Below, in pieces: positions 45,100-56,945 of a stretch of DNA of 64,000 nt. Position 1 is the first letter of the stretch. The number at the start of each line of letters is the position of its first letter. The stretch lies in NCBI GenBank assembly GCA_041395325.1, contig JAWLAT010000004.1, positions 230,684-294,683 of the forward strand, read 5' to 3'. Made by a program: the position numbers and the translations under genes. Source of the stretch: Lysobacterales bacterium (lineage in GTDB: Bacteria > Pseudomonadota > Gammaproteobacteria > Xanthomonadales > SZUA-5). The notes under the pieces are model-generated. The model saw only the letters and a program-made list of their open reading frames with translations, was not told the DNA's origin and ran no database searches.

Positions 45100-45182
45100 C
45101 AAGCCCCGAAGGGGCGCAGGGTGATAGCCCAGGGCAACGCCCTGGGATCCGAAACGCAACATGTAGAGCCCTGAAAGGGCGA
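45100..45182. repeat. REP-like palindromic cluster upstream of the RAYT gene
   Basis: The palindromes are GCCCCGAAGGGGC, CCCAGGGCAACGCCCTGGG and GCCCTGAAAGGGC. The same block occurs reverse-complemented at 45764-45836. Confidence 0.65.
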
Positions 45183-45273
45183 AATCCTCTGGATGCAACT
45201 GCGACTTCTTCGGCTGCAACGTTGCCAAAGGCATCAGATGTGATAGAGCTGAGGAACGAAAGGAGGAATCTCC

Positions 45274-45726
45274 ATGCCTCAATCGCTGGCACAGATGTTG
45301 GTGCATCTGGTCTTCTCCACCCGGCACCGCGAGGCGTGGTTGTCCGACGACGTCCGCGACGAGCTCCACGCCTACATCGGCGGAATCATCAAAAACCAGA
45401 AAGGCGTACTACTGCGGGTAGGATCGGTTGCTGATCACATTCACCTGTTACTCGTCCATCCTCGAACCTGTGCGCCAGCGGACCTGGTGCAGGAAGTCAA
45501 GACGGGCACCTCAAAGTGGCTGAAGGCCAGGGGTTCCAAGTTCGCCGACTTTCACTGGCAAAACGGCTATGGGCTGTTTTCCATCAGTCCAAGCCATCGT
45601 AGGGCGCTCGAAGGCTATATTGACCATCAGGCCGAGCACCATCGGGTCTACTCGTTTCAGGATGAGTACCGAAGGTTGCTGGACAGGTATGGGCTTGAGT
45701 TCGATGAGCGGTATGTGTGGGACTAA
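45274..45726 (+). mobile_element. REP-associated tyrosine transposase (RAYT, IS200/IS605-like Y1 transposase)
   Basis: The N-terminus MPQSLAQMLVHLVFSTRHRE is diagnostic of the RAYT/TnpA_REP family. The HuH motif (HIHLLL) and the catalytic Tyr region are present. A strong AAGGAGG RBS lies upstream. The gene is flanked by inverted REP-like blocks. Confidence 0.8.
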
Positions 45727-45763
45727 CTGGCTTCCAAGACTGGAATTGAATGTTCCGCCCCTT

Positions 45764-45836
45764 CAGGGCTTGTGAATGGGCGACGTCTTACCCAGGGCGT
45801 TGCCCTGGGCTATCTCATGCGGCCCCGTTGGGGCAT
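45764..45836. repeat. REP-like palindromic cluster downstream of the RAYT gene (inverted copy of 45100-45182)
   Basis: It contains GCCCCTTCAGGGC, CCCAGGGCGTTGCCCTGGG and GGCCCCGTTGGGGC. The reverse complement matches the upstream block, including GATAGCCCAGGGCAACGCCCTGGG. Confidence 0.65.
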
Positions 45837-45868: not shown

Positions 45869-48800
45869 TCACTTCCCCTTGCCCTCCGCAGCGCTCCCTG
45901 ATCTTTCCGATCGCGGTGATGGCGGGTTCTCGCTGGGCCCCGTGCCCTGAGCCCTGGGCCCTTTCTCCGGTTTGGCCGGATCCGCCCCGATGCGCTTCAC
46001 CAGACCGTCCAGTTCGGTTCGCACATGCCGGATGTGCTCCCAGATGCTCTGGTCCAGCCGCAACTTGTGGTGAATGGCCGAGACCAGCGGGACCAGGGTG
46101 TCTTCGTAGCTGCGGGCGAGCTGGGCCAGGGTTTCGCCGATGATGGGGGGCGTTTCCGCGGCAGCGGCTGGCTGGGCGGTGTTCTTGGCGACGGCCTTCA
46201 GGGCCTGACTCAGCGCGGCGGGATCGAATTCGCCCAGCCGGGTCAGGGCGGCCTGCAGTGACTGCAGCAGTGGGTGTTCGGCGGGCTGGTCGAGGGCGGC
46301 CAGACGCTCCAGTGCCTTGAGACTGTCCAGCGCGCCGAGGCTGCCGGCCAGCGCCTTGGCCTGGGACTGGGTCTGACTGTTGCCACGTTCGAGCTGGTTG
46401 GCGATGTCGGCCAGCAGCCCGGACACGCGAGTCAGGCCGTCGGCATCCTTGCCGCCCTGCTTGAGCAGGCGTCGGTACTCATCGCAGACGCTCTCCCAGC
46501 GGGCGGTGCTCTGCTCGTCGGCCTGACCGATCAGCTGGCGCAGCTTGAGCAGGTTCTCTTCGGCGCGCGGTCCCAGCGTTTGTGCCTCGCCGCGATAGTG
46601 GTCCAGCACCAGCGCCTCAAGCTCGGCGTCGGTCAGCAGTGGTGACAGCTGTGCCGCCAGCTTGACCATGTTGCGATAGCTGCCCTGCAGCTTGAAAGGC
46701 GGTTCGGTGCGGAAGGCGTCGTCCTGCGCCGCGCTGGCGACGTAGGCGGCGTTTACGCGCATCAGGATCTCGCGCACCTGACCCAGTCGACGCAGCAGCT
46801 CGGCCAGTTCGGCCGCATTGGGCAGGTGCGCTGGCAGCGGTTCGTCTTCGCCAGCCGCGATTCGCAGCGCGACTCGAACCTCCTCGCGGGGACGCTCGGC
46901 CAGCGGTTGGCTGAGCGGATGGGCAGTCAGCGCGTTTTCCAGATAGGAATCGGCGAACAGCCGCTCGCGGCCACTGAGCACGTCGCCCAGATTGTAGGTA
47001 TCGGCACGGTTGGCCAGCATGTCCGGGATACGAAAGCGCTCGCCGCTCTCGGTGTAGGGATTGCCGGCCATGATCAGGGCGAAGCGCTTGCCACGCAGAT
47101 CCAGCGTGCGCGCCTGACCGTCGACGACCGCATCGATGCGGCGGGTGCCGTCGGCCAGCGAAATGAACTTCTGCAGGAACTCCGGCCCCAGGTGCTGGAT
47201 GTCGTCCAGATAGAGCATGACATTGCGGCTCATCGCCAGACCGAGGTTGAGCTTGATCAGCTCCTCTCGAGCGGCCTGATGCGGCGCCTGGGCCGGGTCC
47301 AGGCCAGTGACCTCATGGCCCAGTGTGGGTCCGTTGATGCGCACGAAGGTCATGCCCAGCCGGTCGGCCAGATACTCCATCAGCGTGGTCTTGCCGTAGC
47401 CGGGCGGGCTGATCAGCAGCAGCATGCCCGAACGATCCGAGCGCTTTTCACCCACTGTGCCGATCTGCTTGGCCAGGTTGTTGCCGATCAAGGGCAGATA
47501 GAGCTCGTCGATCAGGCGGTTGCGGACGAATCCGGCCAGCGGCTTGGGTCGGAACTGTTCCAGTGCCAGTTCGCGCTGGGCCAGGGCCAGCCGTTCGTGG
47601 CGCAGCCTGGCGAAGGCACGGAAATCCGGTTCGACGACCTTGCGATAGTGCTGCAGTCGTTGCTGGAAGGCGGGCAGGGCGACCACCAATTGGCCATCGA
47701 CGATGCGCCGATGTTCACCGCGCATGCCGCTGAGTTCGGTTTGCAGCTCGACGTTGACCCGCTCGCGTGGCAGCTCGAACAGCAGGGCGCAGGCGGCTTC
47801 CTGCCGCACTTCGACGCTGGCATTGGTGCCCAGCGCCTGACACCAGCCGAACGCCAAGGCGAAACGCTCGCCCAAGGCCAGGGCCGGGTCCTGCAGCGCC
47901 TCGGCCAGTTCGCGTGGCAGGGCGGCCAGGACCGCCGCCTGCAGATCCGCTGCGGCTGGCGACTGCGGAAAGCGCGCGTCGGACTGGCCGTGAACCTCGA
48001 TCAGATGCCTTGCCGCGGCCTCGGCCAGCAGCGCGCCATCAGCCAGCGCCAGTTCCTCGGCCAGTGTGCTCAGTCCGGTCAGCCAGCTGGCCGGGAGATC
48101 GGCCCGAGCGCCTTCGTGCTGGGCCAGCCAGGCCAGGCCGGCAGCCTGTCGGGCCAAGGCACCCCGCTTGCTGTGCAGCTGACTGGCGAACCAGGCCTGC
48201 GCCAACACTCGGGCCGGCACGGGCGCGGACAGCAAACCGGCGTGACGCGCCTGGCTCAACAGTGCGGCCAGGATCTGTGCGGCGTCGTGATCGTGTACGC
48301 CGCGTTGGTAATCTTCCGCGGGACGGGCTTGCGCGGCCGCCGCGACGGCGGGCAGCAATGCTTCGGCGTCCAAAGTGCCGATGTCCGCCGGTGGCTGGCC
48401 CTGCCATTGCTCAAACAGCAATGCCGCGAGGTATTCAGCGCGATAGACGTCGGCGTTCTCGCTGACCAGCAGCTGCGTCCAGACCTCGCGGAAGCGCTCG
48501 GCTTCGGGCCACTGCAGCTGGCGGCGATAGTCGGTGCCGGCCAACTGCAACTGCAAGCCCTCCGGTCCGGGCAACAGCACCGGCTCCAGGGCTTGCCGCT
48601 CGATGCTGAAGCGCTGCGCCCCCAGCGCCAGACTGTCGCCACTGGTGCCCAGTTCGGAGCGGTCGCGGGCGTCGCGCAGGCCGGCTTCCTTCAAGGCCTG
48701 CAGGCGGCTGGCCAGTTCATCGGCAGCGACGTTCTCGCCCAGCTCGCGTAACTGGTCGATCTGATGGCGGGCGCGCTCGACCAGCGTGTCGGCGGCGAAG

Positions 48801-51175
48801 AAGGCGTGGATCGCCTCGCCGTCGGTCAGTCGCCCGACCCGCCGTGGCACCCCATCGAGGATCCGCTCGACCGCGACTCGCAACGCGCTGGTGCGCCGAT
48901 TGCGCTCGGCCTGCAGTTGCTCGCGTCGGGCGGCAAAGGCTTCCAGCACGGTTTCGCGGCGCTGCACCAGTTCCTCGGCGAAGCGCGGTTGAGTGGCGAA
49001 GCGACCTTCCAGCGTCTCGATCTGCGAGATGGCGCGAGCCAGCCCTTCGTCTGCGGCTTCGGGCGTGTCGCAGCGCGCCAACTGATGTTGCAGCGACTGC
49101 TCCAGCACGGTCAGCTGGGCTCCGAACTCCAGCCCCTGCTCGGTCTCGACCAGACCCTCACTGCGTTGTTTCAGCCGGCTGCGCAACCGATTGACGTCGG
49201 CGTAGAGGCCGCTGGTGGCGGCCAGCAACTCGGCTCGGGCCTGGGCATCGGTCTGTTCAAAGCCGGCGATCAGCTCGGACAGGCCATCGAGTGACTCGGC
49301 CAACTCATCCAGTTGCTCGGCCAGCGGCCGCAGCGCCGCGCTGGTGGCAGCCTGTTCGACTTCGCTGGAGAGCTGTTCCAGTCCGCTGCGCAGGTCGGCG
49401 AAGGCGGCCGGATCGGAGAAGAACTTGATGGCGCGATCACCGACGCGCCGCAGCGTGTCCTGCAACTGCCCATCGAGCTGTGCGATCGCCTGTTCGTCCA
49501 CGTGCGGCTGTTCGGCCAGGCCGACCAGCTCGCCGCGTCGGCGTTTCAGCGCTGCGATGGCGCGCGTGAAATCGTCCGGCTGTTGCCACAGCAGGGACTC
49601 GGTCTGTGACAGCAGCTCGCGCACTTCGCCAGCCGCATGGTCGACCGCCTGACGGGCCTGTGCCCGTTGCACCTCCAGCCGTTCGTAGGCCTGCAAGGCC
49701 GCATCGGCCGCCTTGTGAATCTCCTGCAGGGGTTCGTGCAGTGCGCCGGCCTCGGCTTCCGCCAGCCAGGGATAGGCGTCGCGCGAGCGCGCGGCCAGGC
49801 GGATCAGTCGTTCATAGGCCGGGCGCGTGTCGGCGTCTTCGGCCAGCCGCGCCAACTGCCGCAGCTCGGCCAGACCGCGCACCAGCACGGCGTTGCCGAG
49901 TCGGCCCAGCAGACCTTCCGGTCGGACCTGGGCGGCGGCGTGTTCGTCCGAGCAGAAGGGCGAGGACCACAGCTGCATCGTGTGCAAACGGGCCGGCTCA
50001 TCCAGTTCCGGTGTGAACAGCAGCAGACGGCCGTCGTCGAAGCGGGCATAGCCGTTGGCCAGCAAGGGTGAGCCGATGGACCGATCGATCAGGTTGTAGG
50101 GCAGCAGCGCGTAGCGACCGCTGAGCTCCTCGTGGAAGACGTACAGCACATCTTCGCCACTGGGCGCGCGTATCTGCCGTTTCAGCCGGAAGCCGGCGAA
50201 ATCATGACCCAGCTCGGCGAAGTGCTTGGACTCGCCAGACTCCAGGTAATAGCCACCGGGAAAGACAATGCCGTGGTCCTCCGGCAGTTCCAGACAGGAA
50301 TCGCCGATCTCGTCGATGCGCACCACCTGACGATTGCGCTTGTTGTAGACCAGATGTCGCCAGGCGCTTTCCCGGTAGGGTCGGATGCGCAGCAGGATCA
50401 GCGTGCGCAGGTCGGCATAGGCGATGTCGGCGTCGGCCAGCGACTGGTTCTTGTCATCGACCGGCTCGGCATAGATGCCCAGGCCGCTGTCGGTGTTGTT
50501 CTCGATCTTGACGGTCAGATCGCCGCCGACTGTCTCGACGAAGATCGTGTCGAGGATGTTGACGTGCGGATGGCGCCCGAGCACGTGCTGTTCGCGGCCG
50601 ACGTTGATCCACTCGAAGTCGTGTGTTGGCGGCAATACATGATCGCGTTCGCCGCGGTTGTCGATGTACTCGACCTGGCCATTGCGATCGATGCCGAAGC
50701 GGAACACGCGCCGGTCGGCCGCCTGTGAGCCGGTTCGGAACACCAGCAGCAGTTTGTCGCCAGCCACACGCAACATGTCCAGCGTGGTGGCGCGGTAGTA
50801 GGTGTAGAGCTCGCGAAAATCGGCGACGAAGCGCGGCTGGGCCAGGAAGCTGCCGCTCAGCGGCAGCGGCGTCAACTCGGCTGCCGAGCCTTCGCCGCTG
50901 AGCTGATAGAGGCAGAAGACGTCCTCGACCTGGGTCTGTTGCTTCAGGCCGATGTGGACGTTATAGCCAAACAACAGGCAGTCACCGACGCGGACCAGAT
51001 CCCGCGCCAGGCAATTGTGCTCGGTGCGCGCCGACAGTCTCGCCGCCAGCCGCGGCTCGACCCGGCCGTAGACGGCCAGACGCTGCTGATTGAGCGTTTC
51101 GCTGCGCTCCCGCAGCGTCCCGGCCAAGCCAGCCAGGCGCTTGCGCAACAGATCCAGAGAGCCGGAGAGGTCCAT
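45869..51175 (-). CDS. giant (1768 aa) protein with a single AAA+ ATPase core, long helical/coiled-coil regions and an unknown N-terminal domain
   Basis: The ATG is at 51175. The AAA+ core lies at about residues 1240-1440: Walker A ISPPGYGKTT, Walker B MLYLDDIQH, and a sensor/Arg-finger-like region (RFALIMAGNPYTESGERFRIPDMLANRADTY). The N-terminal about 450 aa matches nothing I recognise. The middle about 700 aa is Ala/Leu/Glu/Arg-rich helical. The last gene of the yjfI/pspA-like cluster lies directly upstream. Confidence 0.8.
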   Translation of the reverse strand: MDLSGSLDLLRKRLAGLAGTLRERSETLNQQRLAVYGRVEPRLAARLSARTEHNCLARDLVRVGDCLLFGYNVHIGLKQQTQVEDVFCLYQLSGEGSAAELTPLPLSGSFLAQPRFVADFRELYTYYRATTLDMLRVAGDKLLLVFRTGSQAADRRVFRFGIDRNGQVEYIDNRGERDHVLPPTHDFEWINVGREQHVLGRHPHVNILDTIFVETVGGDLTVKIENNTDSGLGIYAEPVDDKNQSLADADIAYADLRTLILLRIRPYRESAWRHLVYNKRNRQVVRIDEIGDSCLELPEDHGIVFPGGYYLESGESKHFAELGHDFAGFRLKRQIRAPSGEDVLYVFHEELSGRYALLPYNLIDRSIGSPLLANGYARFDDGRLLLFTPELDEPARLHTMQLWSSPFCSDEHAAAQVRPEGLLGRLGNAVLVRGLAELRQLARLAEDADTRPAYERLIRLAARSRDAYPWLAEAEAGALHEPLQEIHKAADAALQAYERLEVQRAQARQAVDHAAGEVRELLSQTESLLWQQPDDFTRAIAALKRRRGELVGLAEQPHVDEQAIAQLDGQLQDTLRRVGDRAIKFFSDPAAFADLRSGLEQLSSEVEQAATSAALRPLAEQLDELAESLDGLSELIAGFEQTDAQARAELLAATSGLYADVNRLRSRLKQRSEGLVETEQGLEFGAQLTVLEQSLQHQLARCDTPEAADEGLARAISQIETLEGRFATQPRFAEELVQRRETVLEAFAARREQLQAERNRRTSALRVAVERILDGVPRRVGRLTDGEAIHAFFAADTLVERARHQIDQLRELGENVAADELASRLQALKEAGLRDARDRSELGTSGDSLALGAQRFSIERQALEPVLLPGPEGLQLQLAGTDYRRQLQWPEAERFREVWTQLLVSENADVYRAEYLAALLFEQWQGQPPADIGTLDAEALLPAVAAAAQARPAEDYQRGVHDHDAAQILAALLSQARHAGLLSAPVPARVLAQAWFASQLHSKRGALARQAAGLAWLAQHEGARADLPASWLTGLSTLAEELALADGALLAEAAARHLIEVHGQSDARFPQSPAAADLQAAVLAALPRELAEALQDPALALGERFALAFGWCQALGTNASVEVRQEAACALLFELPRERVNVELQTELSGMRGEHRRIVDGQLVVALPAFQQRLQHYRKVVEPDFRAFARLRHERLALAQRELALEQFRPKPLAGFVRNRLIDELYLPLIGNNLAKQIGTVGEKRSDRSGMLLLISPPGYGKTTLMEYLADRLGMTFVRINGPTLGHEVTGLDPAQAPHQAAREELIKLNLGLAMSRNVMLYLDDIQHLGPEFLQKFISLADGTRRIDAVVDGQARTLDLRGKRFALIMAGNPYTESGERFRIPDMLANRADTYNLGDVLSGRERLFADSYLENALTAHPLSQPLAERPREEVRVALRIAAGEDEPLPAHLPNAAELAELLRRLGQVREILMRVNAAYVASAAQDDAFRTEPPFKLQGSYRNMVKLAAQLSPLLTDAELEALVLDHYRGEAQTLGPRAEENLLKLRQLIGQADEQSTARWESVCDEYRRLLKQGGKDADGLTRVSGLLADIANQLERGNSQTQSQAKALAGSLGALDSLKALERLAALDQPAEHPLLQSLQAALTRLGEFDPAALSQALKAVAKNTAQPAAAAETPPIIGETLAQLARSYEDTLVPLVSAIHHKLRLDQSIWEHIRHVRTELDGLVKRIGADPAKPEKGPRAQGTGPSENPPSPRSERSGSAAEGKGK
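45934..45962. repeat. heptamer repeat arm (CCGTGCCCTGAGCCCTGGGCCC)
   Basis: It is the partner of the arm at 44917-44940 in inverted orientation. It lies inside the 3' end of the giant ORF's track coordinates, at its C-terminal low-complexity tail. Confidence 0.5.
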
Positions 51176-51182
51176 TTAGATT

Positions 51183-51343
51183 AGTTCCAGTTGCCTGTTC
51201 CAGTGGCCAGTGAGAAGCCGGCCAGTCCGTCGTGATCGCTCTGCCTTGGGCCGTCGGCCTGAGCTGTGCGTTCGCTGCCGATGACCGACACGGTTGGCGA
51301 TTGCGACGCTTTCAACTGGCTACTGGAACTAGCCACTGGAACT
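51183..51343. promoter_or_regulatory. two 26-bp inverted arms made of tandem GTTCCAGTNGC motifs flanking about 105 bp (operator array or small MITE) between the flotillin and giant genes
   Basis: The arm at 51183-51213 is AGTTCCAGTTGCCTGTTCCAGTGGCCAGTGA. The arm at 51315-51343 is CTGGCTACTGGAACTAGCCACTGGAACTG, its approximate reverse complement. The right arm overlaps the flotillin stop codon. Confidence 0.5.
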
Positions 51344-53407
51344 GCTCTCACCTCCCATCGCGCGCCTGAGCCACCCCTGCAACTCGCCCAGTTCCTCGTG
51401 GCGCCCGTCCTTGGCCAGTTTCTGGGCCAGTTTGGCGATCGAAAGATCACGCACGGCGTCGGCGCCGCCGAGGGCCTTGATCAGCCGCTCGGCGTCGTCG
51501 ACCAGATCGCGCTTGCCGCTGCGGTGATCGGCAGTGGCCTGGCTCAGCAGCGTGCTCTTGGCAATCGTGCCGTCGATGGACTTGCCCAGGCTGAGCGAGC
51601 GCATGAAGCGTTCGAAATACTCGCCGTCGCCACCGACGATCTCGATATTCGCCTTCTGCAGCGCCTGCGCCAGCACGGCGGCCTGCTCGCGGGCGATCGC
51701 CTGATTGGCCTCGATGTGCTTGAGGGTCTGCGCGTGGGCGTAGTCCAGTTCCATGCGCTTTTCCTCGTGCGCGCGGGTGTCCGGACTCATCTGCTGCATC
51801 GCCTCGAATTTCTCGCGCAGGCCCTTGGCCTCGGCGGCGAAGCGGGCGGCGATGGCCTGTGCCTCGGCCAGACCGCGCTTCTCCTGACCCGTGGCCTCGG
51901 CTTCCAGCTTCAGTCGCAGCGCTTCGGCCTGGGCTTCACCCTGGGCGCGGATGGCATCGGCATCGACCTGCTTGACCTTGGCCTGCACGACACCCTGCTT
52001 TTCTTCCGCGTCGGCCTTGGCCAACTGCACACGAGCCTCGGCCAGGCCGGCCGCAGCGGCCAGTGCCTCGGCGCCTTCGGCCTCGCGCTTCTTCGCTTCG
52101 GCCGCCTTGGCGGCGACCGCCAGCCGCGCCTCGGCCATGGTCAGCTCCTCGCTGGCCTTGTGGCGGGCACGCTGTTCCTCGGCCTCGGCCTGGCGCGTTT
52201 CGGCGATGAAGCGCTCGTCTGCCTGGCCTTGCGCCAGCACCACGGCCGCCTTCTTGCTGCGCTCGGCATCGGCCAGCGTGCGCAGATTCTTGATCTCCTC
52301 TTCCTGCTCGGCGACGGTGCGCTCGACCACGATGCGCTCGCGCACCACGTCGGCGATGGCCTTCTTCTGCACCTCCAGCGCCTTCTCCTTCTCGATCTGC
52401 TGCAGCGCCACCTCGCGCTCGCGATCGACCATCTCCAGTTCTCGCGCGCGGGTGACCTTCTCCTCTTCGATGGCCACGGCGCGCTGGCGGTTCTTTTCGG
52501 CCACCTCGGTTTCGCGCTTGAGGTTCTCGGTCTGCACCGCGATGGCCTGGTCGGCGGCAATGCGGGCCAGCTCGGATTTCATCCGCTCTTCCGACGCCAC
52601 CTTGGCGCTTTCGGCTTCCTCACGGGCGCGGGTGATGGCGATTTCGCGCTGCTGGTTGACTTCGGCAGTGGCCTTCTGCCGATCCAGTTCGAGCACGGCT
52701 TCGACGGTTTCCACGTCCTTCTTCTTGATCCGCATCTCTTCGTCGCGACGCAACTCGTTGGTGCGGATGTTCTGCTCGGCCGTCAGCTCGGTGATCTTGC
52801 GGATGCCCTGGGCGTCGAGGATGTTGTGCGGATCCAGCGAGGCCATCGGCGTCTGTTCCAGGTAGTCGATGGCTGCGTCTTCCAGCACATAGCCGGACAG
52901 GTCGTCACCGATCTGCGCGATGATCTCGTCACGGAAGCGATCACGCGCCTGGTACAGCTCCTCGAAGTCCATCGCCTTGCCGACGGTCTTCAGGGCCTCG
53001 GAGAACTTGGCGCTGAACAGATTTTCCAGCGTCTCCTGGTTGGAGGCGCGGGCGCAGCCGATGCCCTGTGCGACCTTGAGCACGTCGGCTGCGGTCTTGT
53101 TGACGCGGACGAAGAAATTGACCTTGATGTCGGCGCGGATGTTGTCCTTGCAGATCAGGCCTTCCTTGCCGGAACGCTCAATCTCGATGGTCTTCAGCGA
53201 GATGTCCATGATCTCGCGCTTGTGCAGCACAGGGATGACCAGCCGGCCGGTGAAGGTCACCTCCGGTTCGGCGCGCATCGTGTTGATGATCATCGCGTGG
53301 CCCTGTTCCACCTTCTGATAGAACTTGGCCACCAGTCCGAGGAAAAACAGGATCAGGATTGCGGCGACGATGACGCCAACAATCAGGGTGGTGATCGATG
53401 CATCCAT
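51329..53407 (-). CDS. flotillin family (SPFH/band-7) protein, YqiK-like
   Basis: It has an N-terminal TM segment (ITTLIVGVIVAAILILFFLGL) and an SPFH domain. It also has a long EA-rich coiled-coil flotillin region (AEAEEQRARHKASEEL...) and is about 692 aa. Confidence 0.85.
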   Translation of the reverse strand: MDASITTLIVGVIVAAILILFFLGLVAKFYQKVEQGHAMIINTMRAEPEVTFTGRLVIPVLHKREIMDISLKTIEIERSGKEGLICKDNIRADIKVNFFVRVNKTAADVLKVAQGIGCARASNQETLENLFSAKFSEALKTVGKAMDFEELYQARDRFRDEIIAQIGDDLSGYVLEDAAIDYLEQTPMASLDPHNILDAQGIRKITELTAEQNIRTNELRRDEEMRIKKKDVETVEAVLELDRQKATAEVNQQREIAITRAREEAESAKVASEERMKSELARIAADQAIAVQTENLKRETEVAEKNRQRAVAIEEEKVTRARELEMVDREREVALQQIEKEKALEVQKKAIADVVRERIVVERTVAEQEEEIKNLRTLADAERSKKAAVVLAQGQADERFIAETRQAEAEEQRARHKASEELTMAEARLAVAAKAAEAKKREAEGAEALAAAAGLAEARVQLAKADAEEKQGVVQAKVKQVDADAIRAQGEAQAEALRLKLEAEATGQEKRGLAEAQAIAARFAAEAKGLREKFEAMQQMSPDTRAHEEKRMELDYAHAQTLKHIEANQAIAREQAAVLAQALQKANIEIVGGDGEYFERFMRSLSLGKSIDGTIAKSTLLSQATADHRSGKRDLVDDAERLIKALGGADAVRDLSIAKLAQKLAKDGRHEELGELQGWLRRAMGGESSSSG

Positions 53408-53500
53408 GATGGGATCCTTGTGGTCAGCACGGCGTCGTCGAAGTAGCCGCCGGTCGGCCCAACGCCGGGGCCGGCAGGCGAACAGTCCATGGCGGTTGGG

Positions 53501-54127
53501 TCAGCCGTCCCAGCGCTCGATTTCGTAACGGTCCCGGGTGGCGTCAAAGCTCAGGATCAGTGCCGGTGCACCCTTGCCCAACTCGTTCGGGGTGCGGGCC
53601 CAGGCTTTCAGATTGAGTTCGCCGCCTTCGCCCAGGTCAACGCGCACCTGGCCGAAGCCCTCGTCCACGCGCAGCGTCAGCACCTTGCAGCGTCGACCGA
53701 TCAGATCGACCGGCTTCGGTCCGGCGTGCACCTTGAACAACGGCTTGAGGGGCTTGAGCAGGGCCGCACTGATCGGTACTGCGATCACCAGTGCCAGCAG
53801 CAGCACCAGCGTCCCGGTCAGCCAGCCCGGCAGCGGTACCCAGGTCGACCACTGCGCAGCCAGCAGCGTCAGCAGCCACCAGAAAAACACCAGCGTACTG
53901 ATGACGATGGAGAAGGGCAGTCGGTCCAGCCCCAGTGCTACCAGCATCCCGGGCACGTCACCTTCGACGTCGGCCTCCAGATCTCCCCCGCCGAGCCAGT
54001 CCGGTCCGAAGGAATCCAGGTCCAGCAGGCCCAGCATGGCGATCAGCCACAGGACCATCAGCACGCCCAGCAGGGCCGTGGGAATGATCCCGGGGAAATG
54101 CGTGAGGTGGTGGAGGAGGGTGTCCAT
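53501..54127 (-). CDS. NfeD-like (YqiJ-like) membrane protein with C-terminal OB-fold
   Basis: It has three or four TM segments followed by a soluble C-terminal beta domain (GRRCKVLTLRVDEGFGQVRVDLGEGGELNLKAWAR). This is the classical flotillin partner gene order (nfeD then flotillin). Confidence 0.75.
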   Translation of the reverse strand: MDTLLHHLTHFPGIIPTALLGVLMVLWLIAMLGLLDLDSFGPDWLGGGDLEADVEGDVPGMLVALGLDRLPFSIVISTLVFFWWLLTLLAAQWSTWVPLPGWLTGTLVLLLALVIAVPISAALLKPLKPLFKVHAGPKPVDLIGRRCKVLTLRVDEGFGQVRVDLGEGGELNLKAWARTPNELGKGAPALILSFDATRDRYEIERWDG

Positions 54128-54336: not shown

Positions 54337-54675
54337 TCAATCGTCGCCATCTCGATCTCCCCCGGCAAACGCCACCAACTCCCCCAGCACCCGCTCCTTG
54401 ATCGCCAGGGCGTCATTTGGGTCCAGACCGTAGCGTTCGCCCAGGATCTGGTAGTCGGCGGGTGACAGGCTGACGGTCAGGCGCGGTCGTTTGGCTGGGC
54501 GCGAGACCGGCAGCTGCAGGATCCGACGAATCATGTCCGGCTGTGACAGTTCGGCATCGAAGGCCGCCTTGCGGACCGCGTAGATGACGTGGGCGGAGAC
54601 ATCGAAGGCCACCTGCACGGCCTTCAGCGCCTTCTCGGTGCTGCGCCAGCGTTCCGGGATGCGTTCACTGTGCAT
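54337..54675 (-). CDS. small hypothetical protein (113 aa)
   Basis: The ATG is at 54675 (MHSERIPERWRSTEKALKAVQVAF...) and overlaps the PspA-like stop by 11 nt. Third codon positions show a strong G/C bias. I recognised no family. Confidence 0.5.
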   Translation of the reverse strand: MHSERIPERWRSTEKALKAVQVAFDVSAHVIYAVRKAAFDAELSQPDMIRRILQLPVSRPAKRPRLTVSLSPADYQILGERYGLDPNDALAIKERVLGELVAFAGGDRDGDD

Positions 54676-55213
54676 CGTCGCGCTTCCGTCGCTTGGGCAG
54701 ATCTTCCAGGGTGTCCATGACCGCCTGGGTCCGCTGCTGTCGGAAGCCGGTCTTGCCACCGCGTTTCGGGGCAGGGCGGCGTTCGCGTTCGTGCTCGTCG
54801 GCGGCGCGCGAGGTGGCGGCCGCGCCGATGGCCGTGTCGACCATGTCCAGATCGCGCTGCAACTGCCGCAACTGGGCATCGAGGCGATCGTGCACGGCAC
54901 TGAGTCGCTCGATATGTGCGTCAAAGGTGGCGACCAGCTCGGATTCGTGAGTCAGCGCACGCGCCAGATCGGTCAGCCGTTCGGCATAGCTGGGCTGGCC
55001 CTGCGAGCCGGCGGCCAGCGCTTCCAGATCCTGCTGTGCCCGGCGCATGCGGCGGCGTGCGGCTTCTGCTCGCGCCCGGGCATCGTCCAGTTCGCGGGTG
55101 GTGCGTTCCAGTACGCGCTGCGCCTGACGCAGTTGCTCGGTGCCGGCCAGTTGGCCGCCGTGGTGGGCGGCCTCTTCGCGAAGCAGGTGCAGGATGTCGT
55201 TCCACCAGGCCAC
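54665..55213 (-). CDS. PspA/IM30 (ESCRT-III superfamily) family protein, YjfJ-like
   Basis: It is 182 aa and all-helical coiled-coil (LLREEAAHHGGQLAGTEQLRQAQRVLERTTRELDDARARAEAARRRMRRAQQDLEAL...) with a basic C-terminal tail. It lies immediately downstream of a clear YjfI homologue, as in E. coli yjfI-yjfJ. It has a GTG start. Confidence 0.55.
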   Translation of the reverse strand: MAWWNDILHLLREEAAHHGGQLAGTEQLRQAQRVLERTTRELDDARARAEAARRRMRRAQQDLEALAAGSQGQPSYAERLTDLARALTHESELVATFDAHIERLSAVHDRLDAQLRQLQRDLDMVDTAIGAAATSRAADEHERERRPAPKRGGKTGFRQQRTQAVMDTLEDLPKRRKRDDAQ

Positions 55214-55217
55214 GGCG

Positions 55218-55691
55218 CTACTCCAGAAACTCGGCGAAGGTCAGGCCGGCATCGACGCCGTTGTCGCTCAGCGTGGCCAGCTCCAGTGCCAGGTCGTCAT
55301 CGCTGGAGTCGGGACTCAACGCGCCGAAGAGCACATAGTGACCACCGACGATGCCAAAGGAAGACAGCGGTACGCTGGGATTGAGCGCCAGCATCGTCGC
55401 CATCAGCTCGGCTCGGCGTTCACTGCGGACCGCTTCGGTCTTCCACAGATAGACGATGCAGAGCAGCTGGCTGCCGGCATCGGTCACATAGATGGCATCG
55501 CGGTCCTCGCCGGGGATGCCCACCTCGACCACGGGCACTTCGCCACCCACGCTGTTCAGTTCGATGCCCTCGGTCAGCAGCTTGCGTTGGAGCAGCGGCA
55601 GCACGCGCTGCAACCTCGCGACCAATCGACGTGGCGTTGGCATGGGCCCTCCGCGATCTCGATGACGGGTTGACGGTACGCTGCCCGTCAT
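55218..55691 (-). CDS. YjfI-like protein (DUF2170)
   Basis: The C-terminal block LNPSVPLSSFGIVGGHYVLFGALSPDSSDDDLALELATLSDNGVDAGLTFAEF aligns with E. coli YjfI (MPLSSVGISSVQQEEYYIVFGALS...LVDNALDLAEI). The ATG is at 55691 or 55643. Confidence 0.8.
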   Translation of the reverse strand: MTGSVPSTRHRDRGGPMPTPRRLVARLQRVLPLLQRKLLTEGIELNSVGGEVPVVEVGIPGEDRDAIYVTDAGSQLLCIVYLWKTEAVRSERRAELMATMLALNPSVPLSSFGIVGGHYVLFGALSPDSSDDDLALELATLSDNGVDAGLTFAEFLE

Positions 55692-55694
55692 ATC

Positions 55695-55717
55695 ATGTCA
55701 AGACATTTTATGTCGAC
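55695..55717. promoter_or_regulatory. AT-rich palindrome ATGTCAAGACAT(TTTATGTCGAC) in a divergent promoter region
   Basis: It is the only AT-rich patch in the 200-bp divergent region between the yjfI-like and FG-GAP genes. It contains an inverted repeat ATGTC-AA-GACAT plus a third half-site. Confidence 0.3.
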
Positions 55718-55895
55718 CACGTTCGGGCATCGCTCCAGGCCCATGGGGGCAAGGGGCCGCGGCGCGGAATCGGTTGCTACGTGCCACCCGCGGCCGTGCC
55801 GACGCGTTGGGTCCCGTCAATCTGCCAACCCGCGTGATCCCTGGCGACCCATTGGTACGTACGGGCAAGCATCGCAAACACGGGGATCCCGAAAC

Positions 55896-56945
55896 ATGCA
55901 GCACGAGCAGCCATCCAAAATGTTCTCAATCGCCCTGTTGACCGCACTGGCCGTCACTTCCAGCCCCGCTTGGCCATTGACCCAACTCGTGGCCGGCATG
56001 GATCTCGACGGTGGCAGCATCCATGTGGTCGATCCCGCGACAGGCGGCCTGACACTGGAGCCCTTCGGTGCCGCATTCATGGGCGGTGTCCGCGTGGCGG
56101 CCGGTGACCTCACCGGGGATGGCACGGCCGATCTGATCGTCGGCACCGGCCCGGGCTCTACCGCCAGCGTGCGCGTCATTGACGGCGTCAGCCAGCAGGT
56201 GATCGGCAACCTGATCGAGCCCTACGGTGCCAACTTTCTAGGCGGTGTCTTTGTGGCCGTGGGCGATGTCAATGCCGACGGCATCGTCGACATCATCGCG
56301 GCGCCATCCGACGATGCCGAACCGACGGTCAAGGTCTTTGATGGCGCGACGGGCGCCGAGATCTTCAGTTTTCTGGCCTACGACGCCGCCTTCCGCGGCG
56401 GCGTTCGAGTCGCAGCCGGTGACGTCAATGGCGATGGTCATGCCGACATCATCACCGGTCCGGGCAGTGCCGGCACGACCCACGTCAAGGTGTTTTCTGG
56501 GCGCGATACCACGGAGTTGGCCCAGTTCATCCCGTTCTCGACCCAGTTCATGGGCGGTGTCTTTGTCGGCGCGGGCGACTTTGATGGCGACGGCGATGAC
56601 GATCTGGTCGTGGCCAGCGGTGCCGACCCGGTCGCAGGCGCCGGCGGTGGTCCGCACGTCAAGGTGTTCAATGGCACAGACCTGCAGGTGCTGGCCGATT
56701 TCCGACCCTACGACACGATGTTCACCGGTGGCGTGCGTGTAGCCCTGGGGGACATCGATGGGGACGGCCTGGCCGACATCATCACCGCTCCAGGCGATGA
56801 TGGTCCGCCATTGCTGACCGGCTGGTTGTCGCCGGATGTGAGCAACAATGACGACATGCTGGTCTTCAATCCCGCCTACAGGGGCGGCTTGTTCGTGGCG
56901 GCTTCTGTCGTCACGCCGACGTTGTTGCGGGACAGCTTCGAGTAA
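55896..56945 (+). CDS. secreted FG-GAP/VCBS repeat protein
   Basis: It has a signal peptide (MFSIALLTALAVTSSPAWP) and five repeats of the GDxNGDGxxDI type. Confidence 0.75.
   Translation: MQHEQPSKMFSIALLTALAVTSSPAWPLTQLVAGMDLDGGSIHVVDPATGGLTLEPFGAAFMGGVRVAAGDLTGDGTADLIVGTGPGSTASVRVIDGVSQQVIGNLIEPYGANFLGGVFVAVGDVNADGIVDIIAAPSDDAEPTVKVFDGATGAEIFSFLAYDAAFRGGVRVAAGDVNGDGHADIITGPGSAGTTHVKVFSGRDTTELAQFIPFSTQFMGGVFVGAGDFDGDGDDDLVVASGADPVAGAGGGPHVKVFNGTDLQVLADFRPYDTMFTGGVRVALGDIDGDGLADIITAPGDDGPPLLTGWLSPDVSNNDDMLVFNPAYRGGLFVAASVVTPTLLRDSFE

Follow-up and report, generated by a model that had tools for sequence, protein, structure and literature searches.

This locus raises the question of what a very large bacterial ATPase does in the cell when its database name points to DNA repair and its neighbours point to the membrane. 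The gene lies within a stretch of 64,000 nucleotides (nt) from the genome of a Lysobacterales bacterium (GenBank assembly GCA_041395325.1, contig JAWLAT010000004.1, positions 230,684 to 294,683 of the forward strand), which we refer to as the window and number from its first letter. The function of bacterial flotillins and the control of their assembly are unsettled, and an ATPase of 190 kDa whose gene is tied to flotillin-NfeD pairs across at least four phyla is an obvious candidate for the controller. The three genes on which the argument turns are:

45869..51175, minus strand: the whole ATPase gene, encoding a DUF3686-DUF7902-AAA+ protein (BacE-like; database name 'DNA repair ATPase'; recognised from its open reading frame (ORF), GC content by codon position, Pfam matches and homologues)
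51329..53407, minus strand: flotillin/SPFH protein of 692 amino acids (aa) with one N-terminal transmembrane segment (Pfam Band_7, E 9e-10; transmembrane prediction)
53501..54127, minus strand: membrane protein of 208 aa with three transmembrane segments (3-TM), in the YqiJ/YuaF (short NfeD) position (three hydrophobic segments; position)

Linkage of the ATPase gene to flotillin

We compared 80 loci from species-representative genomes of Gamma-, Beta- and Zetaproteobacteria, Myxococcota and Actinomycetota, 76 of which included DNA upstream of the ATPase gene. A flotillin homologue (~690 aa, 44–71% identical) was found directly upstream and on the same strand in all 76 of these loci, and the flotillin gene was itself preceded by a 3-TM gene in 71. 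Unbiased clustering of all neighbouring ORFs gave no universal neighbour besides these two. DUF2170 and PspA genes were present upstream in 33–34 of the 76 loci, all from Proteobacteria, and the ATPase gene was followed by a PLD gene in 14 loci and by a rhomboid gene in 9. The strict linkage to flotillin is the decisive evidence on the role of the ATPase. An earlier note on this DNA, made by a model from the sequence and its ORFs, had overlooked the flotillin gene lying immediately upstream.

The flotillin of the window shares 28% identity with E. coli YqiK (E 7e-40). Flotillins linked to the ATPase are conserved to about aa 620, with a 'GGDGEYFERF' region at aa 580–620, and variable beyond, and a search among them for a distinctive conserved C-terminal docking extension gave no clear answer. 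The 3-TM protein has no Pfam match and no BLASTP similarity to E. coli YqiJ; its NfeD/YqiJ/YuaF label rests on position, architecture and the literature (PMC11237479, PMC13086221).

The operon has been described before by comparative genomics (Ravi et al. 2024, PMC11237479), with the PLD gene as an optional member and a shorter flotillin-YqiJ-ATPase version as the more widespread one. The family and operon in the window are identical to those described there, in a single sentence which does not give the clade, structure or mechanism of the ATPase. In Pseudomonas aeruginosa the operon corresponds to the bac ('biofilm-associated cluster') genes, of which Macé 2008 defined PA3729-PA3732 (PMC10948618, PMC2587700). 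Reverse transcription PCR in strain PA14 showed that PA14_16140 to PA14_16200 (bacA-F) are co-transcribed (Wallart 2024, PMC10948618), and in a bacA mutant the BacB-F proteins rose 6- to 13-fold, with PA14_16190 up 8.9-fold (PMC10948618). The bac operon affects biofilm formation and virulence, and the ATPase is expressed and stress-regulated in this species. A 2026 study names the flotillin PaFlo3 and identifies the 3-TM protein as a short NfeD (PMC13086221). An eLife paper on the Arc pathway proved irrelevant, as PA3729 is merely a background protein in its pull-downs.

The published primers for the bacD/bacE junction could be placed on our loci. In six Pseudomonas-group loci the forward primer falls on the 3' end of the flotillin gene, at 0–2 mismatches. 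The reverse complement of the other primer encodes T-E-N-N-C-I-A, the conserved motif of the family at residues ~51–57; this reverse primer matches two loci (L049 and L058) at 20 of 21 nt. Because the primers map to these two places, BacE (PA14_16190/PA3728) is identified by sequence as the orthologue of the window ATPase; it is the sole family member with experimental data, which concern expression only.

Family membership and architecture of the ATPase

The 1768-aa ORF reported by the earlier note at 45869-51175 holds up as a gene: it runs in a single frame on the minus strand from an ATG start, and its GC content by codon position (0.75/0.45/0.82) fits a real gene in a 65% GC genome. We rejected two antisense ORFs as shadow ORFs. 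One (46826-48751, plus strand, 641 aa) lies wholly inside and antisense to the conserved ATPase gene and was set aside on position alone; the other (51266-53446, plus strand, 726 aa) lies over the flotillin gene, has its highest GC content at codon position 1 instead of 3 and has no Pfam match.

Homologues were sampled by a word-indexed search, which returned more than 4297 matches at E below 1e-5, and the best 120 were examined in detail. These share 46–68% identity with the window protein, nearly all over 90–100% of its length, and are 1678–1818 aa long save for one truncated partial record (1430 aa, 83% coverage). DUF3686 and DUF7902 are recorded in all of them and an AAA-type domain in nearly all, under the names 'DNA repair ATPase', 'MoxR-like ATPase' or 'hypothetical protein'. 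The nearest relatives are from Rhodanobacteraceae and Tahibacter, and the window protein is 62–68% identical to proteins which are already annotated. An exhaustive HMMER search with aa 1–1200 found 324 clusters (at the 50% identity level) at E below 1e-30; full-length members were 1590–2036 aa long, and shorter matches resembled contig fragments.

An alignment of 68 members with identities of 27–76% is essentially gap-free over aa 1–1590, and only the last ~180 residues vary. As members are also consistently about 1600–2000 aa long, which answers the question raised by the earlier note of whether homologues are always near 1700 aa, the conservation indicates that the whole architecture is under constraint, beyond the ATPase alone. 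The window protein has the full-length DUF3686 domain, DUF7902, a single AAA+ module with GYGKTT and DDIQH, the colinearity and size of the family and its flotillin and 3-TM context. It is thus a typical member of a large, uniform and catalogued family which is biochemically unstudied and whose operon context is already published, and not a new invention. Its parts are:

49772..51115, minus strand: N-terminal DUF3686 domain, aa 21–468 (Pfam PF12458)
47564..49771, minus strand: middle arm, aa 469–1204 (composition, Pfam, conservation)
49160-49405, minus strand: DUF7902 within the arm, aa 591–672 (Pfam PF25472)
48278-48301, minus strand: arm motif G959-x-H961-D962-x-D964, aa 959–966 (conservation in 68 members)
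46916..47563, minus strand: AAA+ alpha/beta core, aa 1205–1420 (motifs, AlphaFold2, Pfam)
47192-47215, minus strand: Walker B Asp-Asp, D1324-D1325, in LYLDDIQH, aa 1321–1328 (68-member alignment)
46406..46915, minus strand: lid and conserved C-terminal helical domain, aa 1421–1590 (AlphaFold2 helices, conservation)
45872..46405, minus strand: variable C-terminal region, aa 1591–1768 (alignment gaps 0.28–0.83, Tandem Repeats Finder (TRF), AlphaFold2 confidence 50–80)

The earlier note had recognised nothing outside an AAA core of about 200 residues and had called the N-terminal 450 aa unknown. Both statements fail, since PF12458 (DUF3686, with the Pfam title 'ATPase involved in DNA repair') matches at E 1.3e-179 over model positions 2–447 of 448, and PF25472 (DUF7902) matches at E 5.9e-18. 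Both are Pfam families of unknown function.

We modelled aa 1–480, using the 68-sequence alignment, and aa 1140–1730 with AlphaFold2. The N-terminal model has a mean predicted local distance difference test score (pLDDT) of 93.4 and a predicted TM-score of 0.90, and consists of a helix (aa 3–36), ~27 beta-strands and further helices (aa 421–472). Because a Foldseek search of the PDB matched it almost exclusively to beta-propellers (DCAF1 WD40, paraoxonase, Sec12, PALB2; E ~1e-7), we describe the modelled head as propeller-like; TM-scores to those structures are just 0.24–0.41, and the domain has no close solved relative. The published description of the operon agrees with a propeller-like N-terminal domain (PMC11237479).

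The middle arm has a mostly helix-favouring composition with a short Gly/Pro-richer stretch at aa ~846–885, and weakly matches three-helix-bundle families (syntaxin Habc, v-SNARE N-terminal domain). The helical sequence which the earlier note placed beside the AAA core agrees with the composition of most of the arm; the N-terminal head is beta-rich and not helical. Within an otherwise moderately conserved arm, G959, H961, D962 and D964 are gap-free and 96–100% conserved across the 68 members, and this G-x-H-D-x-D motif could be a metal- or ligand-binding site.

The single AAA+ core described by the earlier note is also present as it stated, with one P-loop module, Walker A ISPPGYGKTT at aa 1255–1264 (GYGKTT at aa 1259–1264) and Walker B LYLDDIQH. 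The region passes the Pfam cut-offs of AAA, AAA_22 and AAA_5; AAA_5 scores 23.8 bits against a cut-off of 22 (model positions 2–125 of 139), AAA and AAA_22 score higher, and AAA_3 has no match in the protein. In the second AlphaFold2 model, which has pLDDT above 90 for aa 1140–1580, the fold of the ATPase module is nearest to MoxR members, and the best sequence match of this segment in the PDB is midasin (E 3.8e-7). Two strands at aa 1346–1359 (model residues 207–212 and 215–220, pLDDT above 90) lie between the Walker B and sensor-1 strands and form a pre-sensor-1 hairpin, a feature which classical AAA proteins do not have. On this modelled fold we assign the motor to the MoxR (CbbQ/NorQ) type of AAA+ proteins.

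GYGKTT, DD-IQH, MAGNPYTE, PDMLANR and QGSYR are 93–100% conserved in the 68 diverse members, and for this reason the ATPase site is predicted to be a working one. N1372 in MAGNPYTE is sensor 1 and R1390 in PDMLANR the candidate Arg finger, which suggests an active site formed between subunits; R1501 in QGSYR (aa 1497–1501) is a candidate sensor 2 by its likeness to the MoxR 'GASPR' motif. The Walker B Asp-Asp is found in all 68 aligned members in place of the usual AAA+ Asp-Glu (hhhhDE), and the Gln-His which follows is likewise invariant. Between beta-2 and alpha-2 (aa 1282–1299) there is a conserved loop of 18 residues which contains a short helix and no hairpin in the model. The earlier note had suggested looking for hexamer-forming pore loops; the loop after strand beta-2, NGPTLGHEVTGLDP, has no aromatic pore-loop residue, and a threading unfoldase is therefore disfavoured.

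Searched against the PDB, the full protein and the 68-member profile aligned only over short stretches around the Walker A/P-loop, from which it follows that there is no solved structure for any family member. No transmembrane segment is predicted in the ATPase protein, which is expected from its sequence to be soluble and cytoplasmic while its partners are membrane proteins. The variable C-terminal region contains a semi-conserved long helix (aa ~1681–1725) and ends in the Gly/Pro/Ser tail noticed earlier, a basic low-complexity stretch (aa 1726–1768, G+P = 33%) which homologues lack (83% gaps in these columns of the 68-sequence alignment). What had been called a heptamer-repeat arm comes down to a marginal 30-nt tandem repeat at 45933-45962 (CTGGGCC x4.3, TRF score 39) within this non-conserved tail, and we treat it as incidental.

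A proposed role on the flotillin scaffold and its alternatives

On balance, and with moderate confidence, we favour the reading that the ATPase is a cytoplasmic, MoxR-type and probably ring-forming machine which remodels the flotillin/NfeD membrane scaffold. Its module would consist of the short-NfeD-like 3-TM protein, the flotillin and the AAA+ protein, joined in many Proteobacteria by the DUF2170 protein and PspA encoded upstream. The ATPase would most likely bind flotillin and the 3-TM protein, since these are its only universal genetic partners. The ATPase would form a ring of subunits, each with a rigid arm region of ~1200 residues tipped by the propeller-like DUF3686 head, and head and arm would dock on the cytoplasmic face of the flotillin/NfeD assembly. 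Turnover of ATP in the ring might then drive assembly or disassembly of the scaffold, or the release of clients, under envelope stress, by local remodelling of the MoxR/midasin kind as opposed to threading of whole polypeptides. The arm would serve as a built-in adaptor and replace the separate VWA partner of typical MoxR ATPases. The oligomeric state, the contact with flotillin and the direction of remodelling are parts of this picture that we infer.

Several observations weigh against this reading. No VWA/MIDAS partner formed a cluster among the conserved neighbours in the 80 loci, and the helix-2 insert is not evident in the AlphaFold2 model. The Asp-Asp Walker B may mean that hydrolysis is unusual, slow or switch-like. 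The middle ~700 residues lie outside both AlphaFold2 models. Deletion of PaFlo3 in P. aeruginosa gave mild phenotypes only (PMC13086221), and linkage in an operon fits equally well an ATPase which acts on clients gathered by the scaffold.

A stronger form of the proposal, which we put forward only tentatively and think may well prove wrong, is that the family is a dedicated ATP-driven assembly and disassembly machine for bacterial flotillin cages, in which a MoxR ring carries six 1200-residue arms that grip the scaffold through their heads. If so, the Asp-Asp Walker B and the G-x-H-D-x-D motif of the arm would be mechanistic elements peculiar to the family, and the protein would be the counterpart on SPFH scaffolds of Vps4 (ESCRT-III) and NSF (SNAREs) and the first of its kind. 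We know of no energy-dependent regulator of a flotillin microdomain scaffold in any organism.

The alternative which survives best, although we judge it unlikely, is that the flotillin platform only recruits or confines the ATPase, as HflK/C does FtsH, and that the ATPase is a chaperone for other membrane proteins or complexes or for the rhomboid and PLD enzymes encoded downstream. MoxR ATPases as a rule act in the maturation or release of other proteins (CbbQ/CbbO, NorQ/NorD, RavA/ViaA), SPFH cages enclose AAA+ proteases (HflK/C-FtsH), and rhomboid and PLD genes do follow the ATPase gene in 9 and 14 loci. These genes are however absent from most loci and from the window, flotillin and the 3-TM gene being the sole universal neighbours, and Pfam found no protease or VWA domain in the ATPase protein and no VWA domain in the window operon.

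Less probable again is a Vps4-like motor which recycles PspA polymers of the ESCRT-III type from damaged membrane, with flotillin merely marking the site. In its favour are the DUF2170-PspA pair upstream in 33–34 of the 76 loci, the homology of PspA to ESCRT-III and the psp-regulon-like behaviour of the cluster in P. aeruginosa (PMC10948618, PMC2587700, PMC11237479). Against it, the operon occurs without PspA outside Proteobacteria and the motor is not a classical AAA.

We think it improbable that the operon is a phage-defence or conflict system in which the ATPase senses infection and triggers membrane or nucleic-acid effectors (PLD, rhomboid). In support of it, every phage-infected sample in one study showed induction of PA3728-PA3732 (ISME J 2025, PMC12041424), and DrmC-type PADLOC models recognise, at the domain level, the PLD of the operon variant (E 4e-11). 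A membrane-stress regulon would likewise show induction by phage, the PLD gene is optional, and PADLOC has no match for the ATPase, the flotillin, the 3-TM protein, the DUF2170 protein or the small ORF of the window operon. Moreover, gene order is constant across phyla, the genes are highly conserved and the window operon is surrounded by housekeeping genes (HflX, H+-pyrophosphatase).

An SMC/Rad50-like coiled-coil ATPase acting on DNA, as the database name implies, is very improbable: its only support is the Pfam/NCBI name and weak coiled-coil-level matches to SMC-like models (E 1e-3 to 1e-2), set against a contiguous AAA+ domain of MoxR type in place of an ABC/SMC head split by a coiled coil, the absence of any detected nuclease, helicase or DNA-binding domain, conserved neighbours which are all membrane or membrane-stress proteins, and a literature in which we found no link of DUF3686/PF12458 to DNA repair, no mention of either identifier and none of flotillin with 'DNA repair ATPase'. 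Many named public records carry this name, which is probably a misnomer and misleading. The earlier note would have counted against its own proposal a full-length match to a characterised family; the full-length match found is to this 'DNA repair ATPase' family, which is uncharacterised and whose name is at odds with its neighbours.

These results provide handles for future work: the motor is of MoxR type, the arm may serve as a built-in adaptor, and both the catalytic residues and a partner are defined. What this analysis adds to the published operon is the MoxR/CbbQ-type assignment, the Asp-Asp Walker B, the absence of a VWA partner, the domain models, the linkage in 76 of 76 loci and the orthology with BacE.

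The operon in the window and its relation to known systems

The remaining features of the window operon and its borders are:

54337..54675, minus strand: small ORF, 112 aa (tblastn 39–68% identity, operon position kept in 12–13 loci)
54665..55213, minus strand: all-helical protein in the PspA position, 182 aa (position; weak similarity to the PspA of locus L006)
55218..55691, minus strand: DUF2170 protein (YjfI/BacA-like), first gene of the cluster (Pfam PF09938, E 2.8e-21; NCBIfam BacA, E 6e-8)
55695-56945, plus strand: FG-GAP repeat protein, divergent from the operon (Pfam FG-GAP, E 5e-19)
45274-45726, plus strand: IS200-like Y1 transposase gene (Pfam Y1_Tnp, E 2.4e-20)

The 112-aa ORF lies between the PspA-position gene, whose end it overlaps by about 11 nt, and the 3-TM gene. 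It has no Pfam, NCBIfam or PADLOC match, occurs mostly in Burkholderiales and Rhodanobacteraceae, and is apparently an additional, undescribed member of this operon variant. Burkholderiales share this variant with the window, and their ATPases (L050, L053, L054, L057, L062, L066, L068) are 47–52% identical to that of the window; those of Lysobacteraceae from its own order (L004-L011) are only 43–44% identical. This closer kinship to Burkholderiales suggests two old operon types or horizontal transfer.

PspA_IM30 does not match the 182-aa protein in the PspA position, which has weak in-register similarity (E 0.005) to the PspA of L006, a betaproteobacterial relative with an equal operon layout in which a clear PspA is kept (PspA_IM30, E 2e-31). 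The Rhodanobacteraceae versions, in the window and in its closest relative (L052, 5691-6215), are 175–182 aa long and lack the match, so judging by sequence this protein is possibly a strongly diverged PspA or else a replacement. DUF2170 is assigned a CesT/Tir-type chaperone fold in the literature.

The listed start of the FG-GAP ORF abuts the DUF2170 ORF, and its true start is likely a Met at ~55896, before a signal-peptide-like stretch; this would likely leave a control region of ~200–250 nt common to the two genes. A sigma-54 site has been proposed for P. aeruginosa bacA. Upstream of the DUF2170 gene of the window none was found: the sequence that comes closest, TGGCAC-N5-AACC, does not fit at the -12 element, and matches across the whole window are about as frequent as chance would give. 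No sigma-70 consensus was found in the FG-GAP/DUF2170 intergenic region either, and scanning the cluster for sigma-70 promoters and terminators gave no useful information.

At the other end of the operon, the Y1 transposase gene lies between two 44-nt inverted repeats (45103-45146 and 45791-45834, 82% complementary) which contain REP-like palindromes, CCCAGGGCAACGCCCTGGG, and from its sequence the element at 45103-45834 looks like a RAYT/REP element. It lies 35 nt past the ATPase stop, where Pseudomonas-type operons have rhomboid or PLD genes. In those and some other operons (L037, 15181-16422; L026, L028, L034, L049) an intramembrane protease of the rhomboid type and a PLD/HKD enzyme follow the ATPase, and the start of the rhomboid gene overlaps the ATPase stop.

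The closest known system is the bac operon itself. Six Pseudomonas-group loci show the same order of DUF2170 (BacA), PspA-like (BacB), 3-TM (BacC), flotillin (BacD/PaFlo3) and large ATPase genes, and their ATPases are 41–44% (about 42%) identical to that of the window. In Pseudomonas operons the PspA_IM30 gene is recognisable and rhomboid and/or PLD genes lie downstream, whereas the window operon has a divergent gene in the PspA position, the extra 112-aa ORF and the RAYT element downstream instead.

MoxR ATPases (CbbQ, NorQ, RavA, midasin) form rings and remodel folded partners locally. The window protein shares with them the fold and the pre-sensor-1 hairpin; it has neither the hhhhDE Walker B nor a linked VWA partner. 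CbbQ and NorQ (PDB 6l1q, 9qh4) are stand-alone proteins of ~260 aa with a separate VWA/MIDAS protein (CbbO, NorD) and a DE Walker B, whereas the window ATPase, which is 16% identical to them, has a 1200-aa N-terminal extension, no VWA partner in its neighbourhood and a DD Walker B.

The earlier note had proposed a mechanochemical scaffold like dynein, midasin or MoxR, or like ESCRT disassembly, and of this the MoxR-type fold stands. Dynein and midasin have six concatenated AAA modules in one chain; the window protein has only one, and any ring must therefore form by oligomerisation. Nor does the protein fit the classical AAA clade (Vps4, Cdc48/p97, katanin), which is marked by the lack of a pre-sensor-1 hairpin, a second region of homology, an aromatic pore loop 1 and a MIT or N-domain: here the hairpin is present and the aromatic pore-loop residue is absent. 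The protein does resemble midasin/Rea1 in its AAA_5-type clade and in the plan of an ATPase ring, a long helical linker and a distal substrate-binding domain; in midasin the MIDAS domain is C-terminal, whereas here the binding domain would be the N-terminal propeller-like head.

A likeness of another kind is to HflK/C-FtsH and prohibitin-m-AAA, in which a membrane SPFH scaffold is paired genetically and functionally with an AAA+ machine. FtsH is a membrane-anchored AAA protease of the classical clade, whereas the window ATPase is predicted to be soluble and of MoxR type, and has no protease domain. NfeD-type partners, as in the window, are typical of SPFH operons (PMC2636767).

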